From Candidatus Obscuribacteraceae bacterium (GTDB lineage Bacteria > Cyanobacteriota > Vampirovibrionia > Obscuribacterales > Obscuribacteraceae), in assembly GCA_044226015.1 (NCBI GenBank), contig JBGAHS010000006.1:192001-256000 (forward strand): a stretch of 64,000 nt of DNA. Reading direction: 5' to 3'. Positions 30,010 through 38,180 of the stretch are shown piece after piece. The notes beneath the pieces are model-generated. The model saw only the letters and a program-made list of their open reading frames with translations. It was not told where the DNA came from and ran no database searches. Numbering within the stretch: the first letter of the stretch is position 1; every line of letters starts with the position of its first letter. The position numbers and the translations under genes were made by a program.

Positions 30010-31866
30010 CTAAAATTTCTCAGAAAACAACGAGCGCAAATTGCTTTCGTAATCAGCCGTGGCTGGTCGTCCAGCCGACTGTGCTACGGTCAGGGTGCGT
30101 GTGCCCAGCGGCAACGCGGCAGGAACGTGCACCACTGGTGGTAGCGGGGCTGCCGATGATGTAGCTGCTTCAATCAACAATTGCGCGAGGGCTCTATAAC
30201 CTTCTTCTTCTGTTTCGACTTGCATGTTTTCTCTCTCTCTTTCTACCGCGGTGCAGCCAATCAACTCCGAAGCATCTTTGAGGGCTTCTTTAACAAAGGT
30301 GGAAACTGTATAGATGCGGGGCGCAACTTCCGGATGATACTCCGGCCAAACTGATGGCACCGAGTTGTCGTTTATTTCGCCGCTGCAATCAAAAGTTATC
30401 GGTTCTTTCTCTTCGACTAGCAGCTTCGACTCGTCATCCAAAATAGAGGCGTTCAACAAATGGAACTCATTCATCGATTCCAATGCGATAACGGAAGGAA
30501 CGAACTCTTCGAGTAACAATCCGACTTGATCGGCCGTCAAAGAATTCAAAAACGATAGACTCTCTTCCGAGATTACTTCACTTCTTTCAGAATGAACTGG
30601 TGCGTCCAAGTCAATATAGGTCTCAGCCTGTTCGTTGCCCTGAGCTTCTACTTCCGCCTCTTTCTCCTGGTCATCATGGTGCTCAGGAAGGAGATGAACA
30701 TAATCATCCATGTCAAAATCGTCATCTGAGACAAAGCTGTCGTCGGAATTTGGTTCAAGGGAATCGCCAGATTCATTCAATACTGCACCTTCTGCAATCG
30801 GAACAAAGGACGGAATTATCATCACCGATACTGCAGCACCTTCGTTTCCATGGCTCATTTCTACAGAAGTGATTTGCGCAATCGGAGCAGCTGGAGCCAC
30901 TGGTTCAAGCGCTTCAACTGATTCGACCTTTGCAGCTCTAGATTTCCTGGTGGAACGTTTTGTACAAATGAATTGCTCGTCTGAAATATCCAATACATCT
31001 TTCGAAACAGGTACACCTGCATAGGACGGCTGCCATTCCAGCGCTTCCGTTTCAACTGCCGGAGCCAGTTCGCGGGCATATGCACGACAGCGTGAAATTG
31101 ATACTGTTTCTTCTTTACCACGAATGAAGAAGAATAAGGACAAGCCACCAATGATGCTTGCGACGCCTACAGCTACAGCTATCAAGCCTCCGTTATCTAA
31201 ATCAGCAGAACTTGTAACAGCAGGAGTCATTGCTGCGACTGAAGCATCAGTGACAGCAGGCGCAATGTCGGTGTTTGGAGAATGCATTACAGCTTTGCTT
31301 GCCGTCTTTGGCTTAGCTAAAAGCGATGGAGTAACGGCGACTTTCGGCGCAGCTGCTCTGGGTTTTATCACAGCCGCAATATTGGACACTGGCAGCCGTG
31401 ATTCAGAGTTTGCACTTTTTGCATGTGTCAAGCTAGCCAGGCGGTGAGATTTGCTGACTGGTTCTTCGCTAGCTGCAGCCGTCTCGTCAGAGCGAAACGA
31501 CGGCGCTGGACCTGGCTCATCAGCTTTTGCAGCATAATCTGGCGCAACCGATGGCATGCCACCTTTTGGAGCCGGTGTGAACTCAACAGAAACTGGCGCG
31601 GCCATTACCGCACCTTCGACTTTGTCGAGTCCAAGTTTCTTGCAAATTGTTCTCAATCTATATGAGTCAGAACCATCTAGCTTGTAGCCGACCACTGAAT
31701 TTTCTAGAACCTCAAGGCGCTGGTCTAGAGACTGGTCGTAGTTTGCCTTGCCGAAAACTTTTTCTTCGGCTTTGACCATCAAGACGATTTCGTCGTAAGA
31801 ATAGGCGAGTGCTGCAACAGGCGAAAGAAAAGCAAGCAAAAGCGTAGCTAGAATAACCCGTTTCAT
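30010..31866 (-). CDS. Single-pass membrane protein with signal peptide, Pro/Ala linker and acidic cytoplasmic tail
   Basis: MKRVILATLLLAFLSPVAALA signal; GLIAVAVGVASIIGGLSLFFFI TM; D/E-rich C-terminal half. Confidence 0.8.
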   Translation of the reverse strand: MKRVILATLLLAFLSPVAALAYSYDEIVLMVKAEEKVFGKANYDQSLDQRLEVLENSVVGYKLDGSDSYRLRTICKKLGLDKVEGAVMAAPVSVEFTPAPKGGMPSVAPDYAAKADEPGPAPSFRSDETAAASEEPVSKSHRLASLTHAKSANSESRLPVSNIAAVIKPRAAAPKVAVTPSLLAKPKTASKAVMHSPNTDIAPAVTDASVAAMTPAVTSSADLDNGGLIAVAVGVASIIGGLSLFFFIRGKEETVSISRCRAYARELAPAVETEALEWQPSYAGVPVSKDVLDISDEQFICTKRSTRKSRAAKVESVEALEPVAPAAPIAQITSVEMSHGNEGAAVSVMIIPSFVPIAEGAVLNESGDSLEPNSDDSFVSDDDFDMDDYVHLLPEHHDDQEKEAEVEAQGNEQAETYIDLDAPVHSERSEVISEESLSFLNSLTADQVGLLLEEFVPSVIALESMNEFHLLNASILDDESKLLVEEKEPITFDCSGEINDNSVPSVWPEYHPEVAPRIYTVSTFVKEALKDASELIGCTAVERERENMQVETEEEGYRALAQLLIEAATSSAAPLPPVVHVPAALPLGTRTLTVAQSAGRPATADYESNLRSLFSEKF

Positions 31867-32278
31867 ATTAGTAAGAATCCCCATTAGCTGGTGGTTAAAC
31901 CACCGCAAAGACCAGCCTTCCCCGATTAGCCTTTGCTACCCAACCACGAAAAATGTGGTACATGCCAAAGATACGAAATCGTCAAGAGGAAAACAATACG
32001 CATTTCCGCTAAAAAGGACGAGATTTTATCCTGGCAAACCGTGGTTATGGCAAGAATTTGCCAATTTGGGAGCACACTAATGCAAAGAAGTGGGAACCTT
32101 TTGGGCTTCTTTACAAAATGGCCCATAAAATCGCTCCCGAACCCATTAGCCAGACTACTCGTGGATTTTTTGTGGCAGTGGTACAAGAAAGATCGTCACA
32201 CAACAGATATCGATTGAATGTCTTTCCATCATCCGAGAACTGTTGTAGAATCTTTCTGCCACCACTTACGGTACCAGC

Positions 32279-32866
32279 ATGAACGAAGCTGAAGTTAAAA
32301 AAGCGCTATATAGGTTTGAGCTTTCGAAACTAGTAGGGGAAGACCCAACTACTCGAATAGTTGAAGAATTTTGCATTCTCGGTGGCAAAGTTCGAGTTGA
32401 CATAAGTGCTATCAACGGGCAATTGCACGGATACGAGATCAAGAGTTCAGCTGATAATCTGGAACGCTTACCGCGACAGCAAAAATTTTACAACCAGGTT
32501 TTTGACAAAATTAGTATTGTGGCTGACGAGAAGCATGTGGTGAAGGCTGTAAAAATTGTCCCACCATGCTGGGGGCTTATTTCTGCAAGCAACACGCCAC
32601 ACGGTGTCTATCTAGAGCAGATCTGGCCCGCCCGGCAAAACTTCCAGGTTGAAGCAAATGCGCTTGTTCAGCTTCTCTGGAGAGAAGAAGCTCTTTCAAT
32701 TCTCAGAGTTAATGGCAAAGGCAAAGGGCTTTCTGCGAAATCTCGAAAATACCTCTGGAAAACCATCGTCTCAGAACTTGATCTAGCCACCATAAAGAGC
32801 AGTGTCCGAAACTGCCTCAAGTACAGAATGGACTGGCGTGACGACCCAGATATGCCCCTGAATTGA
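32279..32866 (+). CDS. sce7726-family PD-(D/E)XK nuclease-like protein
   Basis: EEF...RVDISAING.LHGYEIKSSADNLERLPRQ...Y..VFD signature. Confidence 0.8.
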   Translation: MNEAEVKKALYRFELSKLVGEDPTTRIVEEFCILGGKVRVDISAINGQLHGYEIKSSADNLERLPRQQKFYNQVFDKISIVADEKHVVKAVKIVPPCWGLISASNTPHGVYLEQIWPARQNFQVEANALVQLLWREEALSILRVNGKGKGLSAKSRKYLWKTIVSELDLATIKSSVRNCLKYRMDWRDDPDMPLN

Positions 32867-33001
32867 GCATAAAGAATATTTTTCAGGTGGATTTCTGTTG
32901 AATACACCTTTGTTACATAAAATCGAACATGACAAGCGAATGCCTTGCTAGTGAATGGGTTAGAATTTTCAGGCTGACCGCAACTTCAAAGGAACAACAG
33001 C

Positions 33002-35680
33002 ATGTCCGTATCGCTTGTAAAAAAGACTGATGGTTCGATGTCATTATTCATTGATGGTGATCTGCAGTTCGATAGCAGAGACGAATACATCTATCACGAG
33101 GCTCTGGTAAATCCCGCGTTGTCAGTCATCGAAACACGGCGCCCTCAGGGTAATCTTCGCGCCCTTATAATTGGAGGCGGAGATGGGCTTGTAGCGAGGG
33201 AATTGCTCCGCTCACCAAAGATAAGCAGCATAGAACTAGTCGACTACGACAACAAGATTATCGAGCTCGCGAAAAACGAGATTAGCTCCTTAAATCAAAA
33301 AAGCCTTCATGACCCCAGAGTAAAAGTTATCTGCCAGGATGCATGGGCTTACCTGGAAGCAGCATGCAGGGTTGAAGAAAAATACGACATCGTAGTGAGT
33401 GATCTCACTGTTGCGCAAAACAGTCACGAGGCTAAGTTCCATAGCACTGACTGGTATCAAATGCTAAAACAAGTGCTCTCGGCAGACGGCGTCCTCGCAT
33501 TGAATGCAGTCTCAACTCAGGCAACGCCGGAGGCATTTTGGTCAATTTTCAATTCAATAACCTATGCAGGTTTAAAAGCACGTCCATTTCACGTAACTCT
33601 CTCATCCTTCCAATCGCAAGGGTACGGGCGTGATTGGGGATTTTTGCTCGCCTCGACACGGGTGATTCAAAGCAATGAACTCAAAATCGAATCCATGGCA
33701 AAACAAGATGAGTTTCGTTTTCTAAAAAGCTCAAAACAGTGTCTTCATCTATTCGAATTCCCAGAAGAATTCGCAAATCAACAGAGCTACTCTCTTCCTT
33801 TTAGAGCTGGTAGCGATCTACTTCTTCATTATTTTTTCAATAGCACTGAACTTCATGCAAACAGCAGCGAACAATGGAGTTCTTTCAGCATAGAATACGA
33901 CAATCTTTCTGTACTAACTCCAGATGAAGCAGAGAGAATCTTACCTCCTGAATTGAGAAGAGAGCTTTCCTCCGATATAGGAGCAAGCCAGCAGGAAGAA
34001 CTCTTTGAACGCGTGGTCAGCCTGGTTCCTGCATTGCGGAAGAATCAAACTAGAGAGATGATTTCGTCCTTCGTCGAGAACCCGATGCGCTTTCTTGAAT
34101 CAATAGATTTGCTTGAGCTGGTTAGCAGATTATTAGACCGTGCCTCGGAATTGCCATCACTGGTAGTAGCAGAGCTTCGCCTCTTGAAGGACAGACTGGT
34201 TGATTGGACAGGAGACTATAGTGATCTGTTCAGACTTGGCACCAGGGTTATGACAGTTCTCACATTAGTCGTGATAATCGGCAATCTGATGCACCCTGAT
34301 GCTGCATATGGCAAAGATGCTGGCGGCGGACATGGCGGCGATCATGGAGGTGCCGGACGAGGTGGAGATCACGCTGGTGATCACGGTGGTGACCGCGGAC
34401 GGGGAGATCGGGGAGATGGTCGCGGCGACCGTGGATTCGGCAATCGCAATTTCGACCATGACAGATTCAATAACTTCAACCACTTCAATAATTATGGTCA
34501 CTGGGGCCACTACGGACACTGGGGTCATTATGGATGGGCTCGTCCATGGCACGCATGGGGATGGGGTGGCTGGGGCTACAATGGCGGCTGGGGCGGCTGG
34601 TCTGTTCCCATTTACGCTGGCAACGGCGGGTTTCTGAACGTTAACTTGGGCTCAAACAACAACACAACAAACAACAATAGGCAGGCAGTCGACGAAGAGG
34701 GCAATACTTATCCTGCAAGAAAGTACAACTATTCTAACCAGGACTACGATGACAGCCAGGTAGCAAACAGCGACAATGGTCAAAGCTCTGTAAATCAAGC
34801 CACAGCAGATTATAGACTCGGACCTGATACAGACATTTTGCCTAATGGTCAGATCAGTATTCAACTTGCAGAACAATCTTATTTGCTAATTTCTCCACAG
34901 AAAACGCTAGTGATGGATCAGAATTCTGGCAAGCCCGTGATGGCACTTCAAAATGACCCTGCTTTGATTTGGAATTTGAACAACGAGATACAACGCCAAC
35001 AAAAGGGGTTGCAGTCAGCCTCAGACAACAGACAGTCGTCGATTTCATGGGGACAAAATGCAGGACTCCAAAATCATGACGCTGATGCAGCAGAGAGCCA
35101 GAACATTCAATCTGCTGTAGGACGCCTAAATCTGGCGAGCCAAAATTTGCCTCAGGTTCCGGCTGAGCGGCCCAACTCAATGAATGAGCCAGTGCCTGGG
35201 GCAATGGAATTGTTTGCCTCAACCTATATGAGCCCTGATGGGCACTTTCTCATCATCAGAAGACCAGATGGTTCACTAGCTTTCATGGATGGCAAAAACT
35301 GGTACAGTGACGCAGGTCAAACACGAATCAATAAGCCCTATCCAGCACAGTTCAAAGCCATTGCTCAAGCTTACTTGAATAACCTTGTGAGCGATTCTTC
35401 CAAAGAAATCGCAAGCATGCAGCAAGACCAACAGGAGGCAACTGACCGACTTCAGTCTTTGCAGCAAGAGCTCAGCTCCTACAATTCCGATCCCAACGCA
35501 AACCCGAACGAAATGGTTAACTTTGGATCAACGCAAATTCCTCGAGACCATGCAATAAAACGAACTCAAATGATGATCGCAAGAACGCAAAGACGTCTCA
35601 CGATGTTGCAAAAACAAATCAATTCCATTCCACAGGAGAATACCTGTGCCAGCAAGTTATTAGCAAGCTTGCAGAGCTAA
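33002..35680 (+). CDS. Spermidine-synthase-like (aminopropyltransferase) domain fused to a TM segment, Gly/His/Trp-rich region and coiled-coil C-terminus
   Basis: LFIDGDLQF, YHEALV, LIIGGGDG, LVDYD, DPRVKVICQDA, YDIVVSD; AAGGA RBS. Confidence 0.85.
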   Translation: MSVSLVKKTDGSMSLFIDGDLQFDSRDEYIYHEALVNPALSVIETRRPQGNLRALIIGGGDGLVARELLRSPKISSIELVDYDNKIIELAKNEISSLNQKSLHDPRVKVICQDAWAYLEAACRVEEKYDIVVSDLTVAQNSHEAKFHSTDWYQMLKQVLSADGVLALNAVSTQATPEAFWSIFNSITYAGLKARPFHVTLSSFQSQGYGRDWGFLLASTRVIQSNELKIESMAKQDEFRFLKSSKQCLHLFEFPEEFANQQSYSLPFRAGSDLLLHYFFNSTELHANSSEQWSSFSIEYDNLSVLTPDEAERILPPELRRELSSDIGASQQEELFERVVSLVPALRKNQTREMISSFVENPMRFLESIDLLELVSRLLDRASELPSLVVAELRLLKDRLVDWTGDYSDLFRLGTRVMTVLTLVVIIGNLMHPDAAYGKDAGGGHGGDHGGAGRGGDHAGDHGGDRGRGDRGDGRGDRGFGNRNFDHDRFNNFNHFNNYGHWGHYGHWGHYGWARPWHAWGWGGWGYNGGWGGWSVPIYAGNGGFLNVNLGSNNNTTNNNRQAVDEEGNTYPARKYNYSNQDYDDSQVANSDNGQSSVNQATADYRLGPDTDILPNGQISIQLAEQSYLLISPQKTLVMDQNSGKPVMALQNDPALIWNLNNEIQRQQKGLQSASDNRQSSISWGQNAGLQNHDADAAESQNIQSAVGRLNLASQNLPQVPAERPNSMNEPVPGAMELFASTYMSPDGHFLIIRRPDGSLAFMDGKNWYSDAGQTRINKPYPAQFKAIAQAYLNNLVSDSSKEIASMQQDQQEATDRLQSLQQELSSYNSDPNANPNEMVNFGSTQIPRDHAIKRTQMMIARTQRRLTMLQKQINSIPQENTCASKLLASLQS

Positions 35681-35685
35681 GGACA

Positions 35686-36735
35686 TTGATAGTGACGACA
35701 GAAATTCTCACTGTGGAGGAATCAGGGCTGCAGAGCCCTGATTCTCCATTTGGAAAAGAATGGGAGAACTTACTGGACTCGTGTGCAGAGACTGGCTTTA
35801 TGCAAAGCCTTCATTGGGCACAATTCAAAGCAGCTTGCGAACAAAGAGTAATTCACATTACGATTAGAGCTAGCGATAAGCTGATAGCTGGAACACTGCT
35901 CTACACAAGCAAAGATGAGAAGCGACCCACAGTTTTAATTTCGCCTTACGGACCTGTATTGCCCTGGCATAATGAAGCACTGGCGAAAGAGTGCTTGAAA
36001 CAAATTATTTTCAAAGCGCAAGAAATCGCAGAAGCACTGAATGCGGTGACTCTGCGTATTGAACCAAGGGTGCCACATCCGCAGCCACCTCTGCTCAGAG
36101 AATTTTCTCAAGCCCCTGTAAATCTAATTCCTGCAGATACCATGATTCTCGACTTGAATAGAAGCAAGAGCTTAATTCTTCAGGAAATGAAGCCAAAATG
36201 CAGGTACAACATAGGGCTTTCACAAAAGAGCGGCGTCGTTGTGGAAGAAGTTCAAGCCTCTGAAAATAGTGCAGAAATTGCTTTTAGCATGCTGCAGGAA
36301 GCCTCAATTCGTGACAAGTTCTTTCTTGAACCATTTGAGTTCTTCGAGAAATTGCTGAGCACTCTGACACCATCAAAGTTTTTGCGCATTCTAATCGCAA
36401 AGCATGATGAAGAAGTCTTAGGAGTTCTTTTGTTGATTTGTTGCGGAAAGCAGGCAACCTATTTGTATGGTGGCATCAGCAACCAAAAACGTAATCTAAT
36501 GGTTGGTTATGCATTGCAGTGGAAAGCAATTGAGATTGCTAGAGCAGCTGGCTGTACTAGCTATGACTTTTACGGTTACGACAAGTTTCAAAATCCGAAC
36601 CATAGCTACGCCAAATTTTCACGATTCAAGAGTGGCTTCGGTGGCGAAGCTAAACGCTTCATTGGTGCCCAAGATTACATGTTTATAGATAAGCTAGTAG
36701 ATAACGTAATTGGCTTTTTCCGAGACATAAAATAA
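35686..36735 (+). CDS. FemAB/FemX-family aminoacyl-tRNA-dependent transferase
   Basis: FMQSLHWAQFK, YGPVL, LRIEP, MKPKCRYNI, ATYLYGG, YDFYG, RFKSGFGG. Confidence 0.9.
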   Translation: MIVTTEILTVEESGLQSPDSPFGKEWENLLDSCAETGFMQSLHWAQFKAACEQRVIHITIRASDKLIAGTLLYTSKDEKRPTVLISPYGPVLPWHNEALAKECLKQIIFKAQEIAEALNAVTLRIEPRVPHPQPPLLREFSQAPVNLIPADTMILDLNRSKSLILQEMKPKCRYNIGLSQKSGVVVEEVQASENSAEIAFSMLQEASIRDKFFLEPFEFFEKLLSTLTPSKFLRILIAKHDEEVLGVLLLICCGKQATYLYGGISNQKRNLMVGYALQWKAIEIARAAGCTSYDFYGYDKFQNPNHSYAKFSRFKSGFGGEAKRFIGAQDYMFIDKLVDNVIGFFRDIK

Positions 36736-36914
36736 GCAGTTCGTGCATCACAACAATTGATATGCGGCGCTGGCTAACTGGTTTCTTTCGCCCCATAATA
36801 GCCACCTTCTGCTTCTCACATTGCCGCCGTGCAGACTTTTGCCTGCACGGGACTTGGACACAAAGTGTCCATCTCTTTGCTATGATGTCAGCCGTTCCAA
36901 CCAGAGCTTCCATC

Positions 36915-38180
36915 ATGAAATCAATTCTTCAAAGCGTTTGTTTGTCCCTTTTGATTCCCAGTGCCCTCTTGTGCACTTTCGATTCTGCACAGGCACAGTA
37001 TTCAAAATACAAGCCGGGAGATCGTGTTGAAGTCATGTTCTCCGGAAGATGGCAGCCTGGCACAGTAAAGCCTCTGGCTAAGAACGATCTCAATAGAACC
37101 GGAAGCAAGTATCGCGTACAAATTGACAGTATGCCTGATTATCTTCAACCTGAAGGCACCGAGATTATGGTTGATGATATTCGTCCTGGTGGAGCTCCTG
37201 CAGCAGGAAATGACGGAGCCACACCTGTGGCTCCCGCCGCCCAGGGAGCTGCCGGAGCTGGAGCAACATTTCGACCGGGACAACGAGTGGAAGCCATGTT
37301 TGGAGGTAGATGGCAGTCTGGCACTGTTATGCCACTACTAAAGAATGACCTCAATCAGACGGGGAGCAAGTTGCGAATAAAACTTGACAGCATGGCCGAT
37401 TATCTTCAACCTGACGGCACAGAAATAATGGCCGTCGATGTACGAGCTGGAGGAGCGCAGCCTCCTGCGCAGGGCGCTCCAATGGCAAACAATGTAGGTA
37501 ACCCTGCTGGAGTGTCGCAAAATGCACAGCTTCATCCAGGAACTGGCTTTAGACCAGGCGATCGGGTTGAAGCGACCTGGAATGGAAGGCAAGTCACAGG
37601 GACAGTCATCCCGCTTCTGCCTAATGATCTTAATAAGACTGGAAGCAAGATACGAGTAAGAATTGACGGCTTAGCTGACTATCTGCAACCTGAAGGCACA
37701 GAGATAATGGCTGTCGACGCTAAGCACACAAACGCTGGTATAAACCATGACAAATTTGAGAATGGGCTACCCGCGGCGTGGAATCCAGGCAAAGCGCCAA
37801 TTCCGCCGGGCGGAGCGGCACCAGCAAAGCCACCAGGCGGTGCTCAGGCAGGTGAATATGTTGGCAAGTCAAACGCTGGAAGTCCGAAGATGATTGGCAA
37901 TGTTCCCGACATGAATGGAACGGCCTGGAAGATGCTTTTTGACCGAGCCGTGCATGTTGTGCCAGTACTTTATTTCAGACGCACTGGACGATATGAAACC
38001 GTCCAGCTCGCCGCCGGTATGCAAGGCAATTATCAGCAAAACGGCAGCAAATTGCTATTGACTGCTAACGGAAAAACTGACGCATACAACATGACCTTTG
38101 ATCCTGCTACTAACATCTTGCGTCTTGATGCTGACGGTGACAAGCTAAAGTTGCTCTATGATGGTCCCATTCCACGCTAG
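36915..38180 (+). CDS. Exported protein with three tandem SH3/Tudor-like repeats and a C-terminal beta domain
   Basis: Signal peptide ending AQA|Q; three copies of [YF]xPGxRVE...W..GTV.PL..NDLN.TGSK.R..ID...DYLQP.GTEIM. Confidence 0.85.
   Translation: MKSILQSVCLSLLIPSALLCTFDSAQAQYSKYKPGDRVEVMFSGRWQPGTVKPLAKNDLNRTGSKYRVQIDSMPDYLQPEGTEIMVDDIRPGGAPAAGNDGATPVAPAAQGAAGAGATFRPGQRVEAMFGGRWQSGTVMPLLKNDLNQTGSKLRIKLDSMADYLQPDGTEIMAVDVRAGGAQPPAQGAPMANNVGNPAGVSQNAQLHPGTGFRPGDRVEATWNGRQVTGTVIPLLPNDLNKTGSKIRVRIDGLADYLQPEGTEIMAVDAKHTNAGINHDKFENGLPAAWNPGKAPIPPGGAAPAKPPGGAQAGEYVGKSNAGSPKMIGNVPDMNGTAWKMLFDRAVHVVPVLYFRRTGRYETVQLAAGMQGNYQQNGSKLLLTANGKTDAYNMTFDPATNILRLDADGDKLKLLYDGPIPR

Follow-up and report, generated by a model that had tools for sequence, protein, structure and literature searches.

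A conserved pairing of a spermidine-synthase-like fusion protein with a Fem transferase: a candidate membrane modification system

What is the function of a spermidine-synthase-like enzyme that is fused to a predicted exported protein and followed, a few nucleotides downstream, by a gene for an aminoacyl-tRNA transferase of the FemAB family? This arrangement is found at positions 33,002 to 36,735 of a 64,000-nucleotide stretch of DNA from a Candidatus Obscuribacteraceae bacterium (assembly GCA_044226015.1, contig JBGAHS010000006.1, positions 192,001 to 256,000; in the following, the window). An earlier note on this DNA had proposed that a membrane-tethered enzyme adds an aminopropyl arm to an acceptor other than putrescine and that the Fem enzyme aminoacylates the new amine. 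Based on comparisons with relatives in genomes, metagenomes, and protein collections, our tentative answer is that the conserved pair would consist of a membrane-tethered aminopropyltransferase and a Fem enzyme that build an aminopropyl/aminoacyl modification at the membrane, and not ordinary spermidine. The pair has the following features:

33002..35680, + strand: open reading frame (ORF) of 892 aa with ATG start, comprising a SpeE-like enzyme, a helical linker, a hydrophobic helix, a low-complexity tract, and a predicted exported beta/coiled-coil domain
33002..33931, + strand: catalytic domain of the aminopropyltransferase fold (residues 1–310), from Pfam/NCBIfam, a PDB sequence match, AlphaFold2 (AF2), and Foldseek
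33401..33415, + strand: gatekeeper loop D134-L-T-V-A138, from alignments and family statistics
33947..34237, + strand: conserved helical linker (residues 316–412), predicted to be cytoplasmic; AF2 helices at 316–411 with a predicted local distance difference test score (pLDDT) of 51–82
34241..34291, + strand: single hydrophobic helix (residues 414–430), from a hydropathy scan, AF2, and homology to the signal peptides of standalone relatives
34283..34318, + strand: family signature N428-x3-P-D-x2-Y-G-K438-G/D at the outer helix end, from the family alignment and pattern statistics
34316..34636, + strand: low-complexity tract, Gly/His/Asp/Arg and then Gly/Trp/Tyr (residues 439–545), with a GWARP motif, from translation and alignment
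34679..35677, + strand: predicted exported folded domain (residues 560–892) with two beta modules and two antiparallel coiled-coil hairpins, from the AF2 model
35686..36735, + strand: gene for a FemAB-family aminoacyl-tRNA transferase, 349 aa if read from TTG, from Pfam and alignments

Conservation of the enzyme–Fem pair

A scan of a genome collection yielded 215 relatives in 79 loci. The carriers include Obscuribacterales, 'Melainabacteria', Sericytochromatia, Herpetosiphon (Chloroflexia), Armatimonadota, Chthonomonadaceae, Fimbriimonadaceae, and Geomonas, and among the cultured ones are Herpetosiphon aurantiacus DSM 785, H. giganteus, H. llansteffanensis, and Geomonas sp. Red32. In 67 of the 79 loci, the enzyme gene is followed by a co-oriented Fem gene; at the remaining 12, the contig stops within 508 nt past the last match. 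Fem is hence present in 67 of 67 assessable loci, and the adjacency recurs wherever there is enough downstream DNA.

The same picture emerged from 41 related genomes, in which full-length or N-terminal relatives were detected in the source genus and eight further genera of the family. Sixteen of these genomes have Fem, and precisely these 16 gave family-type matches to the 892-aa protein; the other 25 contain neither. The N-terminal enzyme part was present in 15 of the 16 Fem-bearing genomes; in a genome that is 70% complete (G005), only the C-terminal half was matched, and it adjoins Fem. One genome (G019) has two enzyme–Fem pairs. When the ORFs around the pair were clustered, only the enzyme and Fem genes were universal. 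The next most common neighbour, a gene for the small S-adenosylmethionine decarboxylase (AdoMetDC, PF02675), occurs in 21 of the 79 loci, and a DUF350 gene occurs in 10 of them. The frequent AdoMetDC neighbours fit a transfer that depends on decarboxylated S-adenosylmethionine (dcSAM) and uses an acceptor other than putrescine.

A second set of 80 metagenome loci was fetched with more distant Fem proteins. In one part of this set (L100–L131), a SpeE-like gene of the family type lies directly upstream of Fem wherever upstream DNA exists, and Fem is often followed immediately by a DUF350 gene encoding eight transmembrane (TM) helices. Another 48 loci (L132–L179; about 25 with at least 3 kb of upstream sequence) represent Fem clades at a greater distance, and none of them gave a SpeE-like, DUF350, or AdoMetDC match. 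A FastTree phylogeny of 115 Fem rows, from which matches of less than 270 residues had been kept out, requires one change to separate the labels linked (85 rows) and unlinked (18 rows), with a long-branch warning among the unlinked rows and with 12 rows that have no upstream DNA excluded from the count.

The recurrence across dozens of independent assemblies is more than chance. As the adjacency is strict across phyla, as the two genes co-occur in the same 16 of 41 genomes, and as the linked Fem proteins form a dedicated clade, two unrelated pathways are not expected. The fusion itself, for which the earlier note had considered misassembly or read-through, recurs in the 41-genome search, in the protein collection, and among the 79 loci. 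Both artefacts were ruled out, since the same fusion occurs in many independent assemblies, including the complete genome of a cultured species.

Both ORFs, and all motifs that had been quoted for them, were confirmed. In the translation of the 892-aa ORF, GDLQF is at residues 19–23, YHEAL at 31–35, GGGDG at 58–62, DPRV at 103–106, and YDIVVSD at 128–134, followed by LTVA. Pfam assigns residues 29–208 to Spermine_synth (PF01564; E 3.9e-26, 92.2 bits against a cut-off of 22.9), and a Pfam scan of the whole protein gave no match besides this enzyme domain. The top NCBIfam model is PRK03612, which scores 214.2 bits against a cut-off of 472 (E 2.7e-63). This match covers model positions 263–498 of 522, starting from protein residue 9, and is thus confined to the catalytic half of the membrane-fused proteins. 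Further NCBIfam aminopropyltransferase models also remained below their equivalog cut-offs (150 against 537, 115.4 against 260, and 96.4 against 249.55). As an in-frame TGA is located at 32975–32977, 27 nt before the ATG, there is no upstream extension and no missed N-terminal membrane domain. A protein collection yielded about 108 family members (P0003–P0110), which are named only 'hypothetical' or 'spermidine synthase'. In the alignment of this family, the linker columns P343, D369, L384, P385, E391, L392, and L395 are also conserved.

The second ORF matches FemAB (PF02388; E 8.6e-28, 97.7 bits against a cut-off of 24) and Acetyltransf_6 (E 1.3e-14), and the FemX equivalog model gives it 63.9 bits (cut-off 500). 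The spacing of 5 nt after the upstream stop codon, as originally described, holds if TTG at 35686 is the start. A database protein of 347 aa (P0123), which is 100% identical to the Fem ORF at 99% coverage, fits a start at GTG 35692 instead, which would widen the gap to 11 nt. A conserved Phe-Lys pair belongs to the catalytic centre of W. viridescens FemX. The corresponding residues F314 and K315, which align with the F-K of that enzyme (1ne9), are invariant in 43 Fem sequences. The C-terminal GNAT half aligns with S. aureus FemX (6snr, E 7.6e-13). The window protein thus has the FemAB domain in common with the peptidoglycan-branching Fem enzymes (6snr, FemA 1lrz, and 1ne9) and has the size of W. 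viridescens FemX, but it belongs to a separate clade that always adjoins a SpeE-like gene. In the source genome, the paired gene was the one FemAB-family gene found. Longer, fused Fem forms were not found, which is weak evidence.

The active site and its altered acceptor gate

An AF2 model of residues 1–445, built from the 108 family sequences, has pLDDT values above 90 up to about residue 310. Its closest fold in a Foldseek search was T. thermophilus SpeE (1uir_B; E 1.1e-18, TMt 0.72, 283 columns), and SpeE of this organism was also the closest PDB sequence (E 1.3e-27). The catalytic domain lacks the first N-terminal strands of classical SpeE. L21, Q22, D27, E28, Y31, H32, G58, G59, D61, G62, and D134 are invariant in the 108 sequences, G60, D81, D113, and A114 are at least 90% conserved, and D134, Y31, and Q22 align with their T. 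thermophilus SpeE counterparts. We take the invariant positions to be the donor site of an aminopropyltransferase together with its catalytic Asp. In such donor sites, the Asp of GGGDG favours dcSAM over S-adenosylmethionine, an acidic residue follows strand 2, and a D-A/G element contacts the adenine.

The enzyme from T. thermophilus, a triamine/agmatine aminopropyltransferase (1uir, 3anx), shares GGGDG, the catalytic Asp, and the YHE motif with the 892-aa protein. However, it is a soluble protein of 314 aa with a full N-terminal beta domain, and its gate reads DLTDP, whereas that of the 892-aa protein reads DLTVA. In the latter, the catalytic Asp is retained, and the second Asp, which in SpeE enzymes binds the distal amine of putrescine, is replaced by Val137. 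The absence of this Asp, already pointed out in the earlier note, turned out to be family-wide: Asp occupies the position in 0 of 102 family sequences read and in 0 of 17 five-residue gates read in metagenome ORFs, and Val, Phe, or Tyr takes its place in the family. The gate is D[LF]T[VF][PA] in the family, in comparison to D[LF]PDP in paralogues of the 7TM type and DVLDS in an AdoMetDC-fused paralogue.

Alternatively, the SpeE-like domain might be inactive and serve only as a scaffold or sensor, by which Fem is held at the membrane or regulated there. The missing N-terminal SpeE strands and the missing distal-amine Asp would agree with this, but the residues of the donor site and of catalysis are all invariant in the 108 sequences, and AdoMetDC has been recruited to the cluster in 21 of the 79 loci. 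We regard an inactive domain as hardly credible.

The source genome encodes two more SpeE paralogues, both of which have the distal-amine Asp. The first is a 436-aa fusion of AdoMetDC and aminopropyltransferase with the gate sequence IIDVLDS on contig 1 (locus positions 607–1917, − strand), and it is probably the real polyamine synthase of the cell. Fusions of this kind produce spermidine and spermine in Pelagibacter (PMC11107197). The second is a 500-aa enzyme with a 7TM and a spermidine-synthase-like (SpdSyn-like) part and the gate DFPDP. It belongs to a classical cassette at 995500–1000500 of contig 1, in which it is flanked by a zinc-ribbon/DUF4178-like protein (445 aa) and a flavin amine-oxidase-like protein with a Tat signal (546 aa). 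Because these two Asp-keeping paralogues exist, the Fem-linked enzyme is dispensable for ordinary polyamine synthesis in the source genome.

These data also bear on the simplest explanation, in which two ordinary enzymes are merely co-transcribed, namely a membrane-tethered spermidine or polyamine synthase and a peptidoglycan-branching Fem enzyme. The automatic names of the proteins, 'spermidine synthase' and 'peptidoglycan bridge formation glycyltransferase FemA/FemB family', say exactly this, and Herpetosiphon and Geomonas have no other strong Spermine_synth match and only the adjacent AdoMetDC. On the other hand, the strict neighbourhood of the two genes, seen in different phyla and at each of the 67 loci that could be assessed, the co-occurrence in the same 16 of 41 genomes, and the dedicated Fem clade would remain unaccounted for, the putrescine-binding Asp is absent from all members read, and the scores are far under the NCBIfam equivalog cut-offs for both the enzyme (214 against 472) and FemX (63.9 against 500). 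The two additional Asp-keeping paralogues of the source genome point in the same direction. A pair of ordinary enzymes is therefore improbable.

The hydrophobic helix and the predicted exported module

The 892-aa protein has a sole hydrophobic segment, which spans about residues 409–430 in a hydropathy scan and forms a helix from 414 to 430 in the AF2 model. The helix is conserved across all family members. Its features are those of a signal peptide, with R413, an h-region from V414 to M430, P432, A435 at position −3, and G437 at position −1 of the motif HPDAAYG437/K438, where the slash marks the putative cut (K438 codon at 34313–34315). The resemblance of the segment end to a signal-peptidase site, which had been noticed before, thus extends to the −3/−1 rule, with the cut expected between G437 and K438. 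The signal-peptide-like segment is, however, internal (residues 414–437) and not at the N-terminus of the precursor.

The signature around the helix end is shared by 106 of 109 family proteins, with G/A/S at −1, V/A/I/T at −3, and Lys at +1. The remaining three proteins have close variants (YGKG, YSKG), and 18 of 18 metagenome ORFs have the signature. K438 is invariant in the 108 sequences. A long tail follows the signature in 69 of the 106 pattern-matched proteins, in which the enzyme is fused to the exported module.

This module was modelled by AF2 with high confidence (residues 560–892; pLDDT 94.7, predicted template modelling score 0.86). The coiled-coil C-terminus that had been read from the sequence appears in the model as antiparallel coiled-coil hairpins, to which beta modules are added. 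A Foldseek search of the PDB with this model gave no match at E of 0.001 or below, and VIA returned generic coiled-coil hairpins only, the best being prefoldin beta (Z 10.0, root mean square deviation 1.2, 103 residues), which matched the last hairpin (model residues 228–333). No usable match was obtained from the ESM Atlas with the C-terminal part as query. At the sequence level, 120 relatives of the domain with E of 0.001 or below were found among 1.84 billion representatives, and these are either the ends of fusions of 760–970 aa or standalone proteins of 410–550 aa.

The standalone relatives have an ordinary N-terminal signal peptide that ends with A-x-A/R-G-G-G, followed by a Gly/Arg/His and then a Gly/Trp/Tyr tract and the same folded domain. 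In the alignment, VPDAAFA/RGGGG of one of them (P0251) is found where the 892-aa protein has HPDAAYG/KDAGGG. As the signal peptides of the standalone relatives are at the matching place, we consider the hydrophobic helix to be homologous to a signal peptide, and it is likely an internal signal peptide that is cut by signal peptidase. Two related genomes (G009, G012) have the standalone exported relative and yielded no match for Fem or the enzyme. By these comparisons, the C-terminal half is a separable module with predicted export. Because the module also exists on its own, the fusion is probably polyprotein-like, with an internal signal peptide, and not one membrane-spanning machine. Of the initial picture of a membrane-tethered enzyme with an envelope half, the helix anchor has therefore been retained, whereas the envelope half is better seen as separable.

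Two standalone relatives (L098 4727–6103, + strand; L099 4488–5789, − strand), from two genomes that gave no match for Fem or the enzyme, lie in a common neighbourhood, which includes a helical membrane protein of 310–338 aa, a secreted protein that reads as amidotransferase-like from its sequence, and a hydrolase-like protein of 433–439 aa.

The low-complexity tract between helix and folded domain contains short tandem repeats of 9–12 nt in the 892-aa protein. Its length is lineage-specific, and it is absent from most family members beyond the closest lineage. The tract was therefore ruled out as a core functional element.

The fusion of an enzyme to an exported module raises the possibility that enzyme and substrate are joined in one polypeptide, so that the pair would modify the exported half of the same protein or the region around the invariant Lys438. 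The fusion in 69 of 106 pattern-matched family proteins and the invariance of K438, which equals that of the catalytic residues, would be in line with such a protein target. Yet the two donors, dcSAM and aminoacyl-tRNA, are cytoplasmic, and K438 and all later residues are located past the helix, on the exported side. In addition, the module stands alone in genomes in which neither enzyme was found, and 15 family members are almost devoid of an exported part. A protein target is thus very improbable.

A candidate membrane modification, related systems, and neighbouring genes

How could the pair work, then? Both predicted enzymes require cytoplasmic substrates, dcSAM and aminoacyl-tRNA, respectively, and face the cytoplasm at the membrane. 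The N-terminal domain is predicted to be an active dcSAM-dependent aminopropyltransferase that is tethered to the membrane on this side. Its acceptor would be an amine other than a free diamine, most likely a membrane-bound one, for instance in the head group of a lipid or in an envelope precursor that is linked to a lipid. In a second step, Fem would transfer an amino acid from aminoacyl-tRNA to an amine of that molecule, and DUF350, where present, may handle the product in the membrane. The C-terminal half would be exported via the single hydrophobic helix, and a likely cut by signal peptidase at G437/K438 would yield two products, an enzyme with a tail anchor and a coiled-coil protein, rich in Gly and aromatic residues, that is free in the periplasm.

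We hold the parts of this proposal with different confidence. That both enzymes share one substrate is probable. That this substrate is membrane-bound and that aminopropylation comes first is plausible, although we would not count on it. More speculative still is the combined scheme, in which an aminopropyl arm and a tRNA-derived amino acid on a membrane amine give a cationic pseudo-peptide or polyamine head group that is flipped outward, while signal peptidase separates the 892-aa polyprotein into the tail-anchored enzyme and a secreted part, the coiled-coil protein with the invariant Lys at its start. An analogy for the mechanism is provided by aminoacyl-phosphatidylglycerol synthases of the MprF type, in which a GNAT/Fem-like fold at the cytoplasmic face aminoacylates lipids in a tRNA-dependent manner and is coupled to a flippase; to our knowledge, no aminopropyl step occurs in MprF systems.

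Several points weigh against the proposed membrane modification. AdoMetDC and DUF350 are not near the pair in the 64-kb window; both are on other contigs of the source genome, which has two AdoMet_dc genes and a single DUF350 match, on contig 11, with an internal stop. In Herpetosiphon aurantiacus and Geomonas sp., the genome's only AdoMet_dc match lies in this cluster. This AdoMetDC may serve no ordinary polyamine pathway, but the family enzyme beside it is also the only strong Spermine_synth match there and could be a plain polyamine synthase in these organisms. The acceptor-binding half of Fem aligns weakly and is too diverged to indicate a substrate. As to the order of reactions, the Asp loss is equally well explained by an acceptor whose far amine has already been acylated by Fem. 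With respect to the helix, P432, D433, and K438 are as conserved as the catalytic residues, which is more than a signal-peptidase site requires, and the 15 short family members, which have only 47–120 residues past the motif, also retain the signature. Finally, the support is comparative throughout.

The point about the reaction order leads to a serious rival, a soluble route. Here, Fem would attach an amino acid from tRNA to one amine of a free diamine or polyamine, and the SpeE-like enzyme would aminopropylate the remaining amine, or the two steps would occur in reverse; the resulting small aminoacylated polyamine may be exported by DUF350. If the far end of the acceptor were acylated and hence neutral, the substitution of Val, Phe, or Tyr for the distal-amine Asp would be explained. 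In addition, other DUF350 clusters hold an amide-forming ATP-grasp ligase related to glutathionylspermidine synthetase (PMC11237479). The presence of AdoMetDC in the cluster fits this route as well, but the enzyme is always membrane-anchored, with the helix in all family members, and an anchor is superfluous in a soluble pathway. Moreover, free polyamines are not known to be a substrate of any characterised Fem enzyme, and no literature joining FemAB and spermidine synthase was found. We consider the soluble route unlikely.

We now return to the membrane-bound modification and compare it with known systems. In 2019, Li, Kurihara, Kim, Liang, and Michael (Biochem J 476:2579) reportedly described clusters of AdoMetDC, a membrane-fused (MFS/7TM) SpdSyn-like enzyme, and DUF350, for which a non-putrescine acceptor was proposed. 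Such clusters, whose function is unexplained, are also discussed in PMC11237479. The pair analyzed here is a Fem-coupled variant of these systems. As in the membrane SpdSyn-like clusters, the enzyme is membrane-anchored, with the PRK03612 type as its closest relative (34–37% identity to 7TM-type proteins), and AdoMetDC and DUF350 recur as neighbours of the pair. Unlike the proteins of those clusters, the family lacks an N-terminal multi-TM domain and has one helix behind the catalytic domain as its anchor, its gate is DxT(V/F)P in place of DxPDP, and it has a C-terminal exported module and, most importantly, an obligatory Fem partner; neither DUF4178 nor an amine oxidase was observed in the family cluster. 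The source genome, as outlined above, encodes a classical 7TM cassette elsewhere besides the Fem-linked enzyme.

By analogy only, the E. coli-type yjf clusters, which combine the DUF350 protein YjfL with the glutathionylspermidine-synthetase-related ATP-grasp enzyme, also join a polyamine-type and an amide-forming enzyme (PMC11237479), with Fem corresponding to the ligase. In contrast to these clusters, the chemistry would use aminoacyl-tRNA and not ATP-grasp, and no PspA or CesT dyad is present at the family loci.

The earlier note knew of no operon that joins a SpeE fusion with Fem. This statement stands insofar as no description of a Fem–aminopropyltransferase pairing, nor of a spermidine synthase in Herpetosiphon, was found in the literature, but the membrane SpdSyn-like/AdoMetDC/DUF350 clusters are a precedent. 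Membrane-bound SpdSyn-like enzymes with a dedicated AdoMetDC are widespread, and no acceptor is reported for them in the texts covered here (PMC11237479). Because the Fem enzyme is strictly coupled, one would expect a product with an aminopropyl group as well as an amino acid derived from tRNA, which would make it an easy target for mass spectrometry. Cultured carriers of the module exist, so that the question can be tested directly. If the proposed modification exists, it would name the acceptor class of the membrane spermidine-synthase-like enzymes, represent the first case in which a Fem enzyme uses an aminopropylated substrate in a tRNA-dependent reaction, and extend the reach of Fem past peptidoglycan branching and natural-product synthesis. 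The 892-aa protein may also exemplify an internal signal peptide through which one bacterial protein gives rise to two products, one cytoplasmic and one exported.

Some neighbouring genes deserve mention as side aspects. An unnamed domain of about 120 aa (FGRIP...LRDW.ENENTSGL...DVADL...NWNA.GDPG.PGP), alone or fused to 4–5 TM helices, occurs in 12 of the 79 loci and adjoins Fem and DUF350 in Herpetosiphon, a metagenome-assembled genome of Sericytochromatia, and others (L063 11529–11903 and 12151–13020; L054 9267–9737 and 9743–10624). The two Herpetosiphon copies that were scanned had no Pfam match.

No tRNA genes were found in the window, and the counts of a promoter/terminator scan were not above those of shuffled sequences. 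An acidic low-complexity ORF of 632 aa with an N-terminal hydrophobic stretch and no Pfam match is located at 30010–31908 (− strand). Directly upstream of the pair, at 32279–32866 (+ strand), is a gene for an sce7726-family protein (NF033832, E 2.4e-47). As its ORF cluster comprises only 5 of the compared loci, it is probably unrelated to the pair. On the downstream side, at 36762–38180 (+ strand), a predicted secreted protein of 472 aa is encoded, which is likewise not a conserved neighbour, and both genes are therefore placed outside the system. The 472-aa protein contains three tandem repeats of about 95–100 aa with the pattern GDRVE..W..GTV.PL..NDLN.TGSK.R...D...DYLQPEGTEIM, which gave sub-threshold Pfam matches of the chromo/Tudor-like type.

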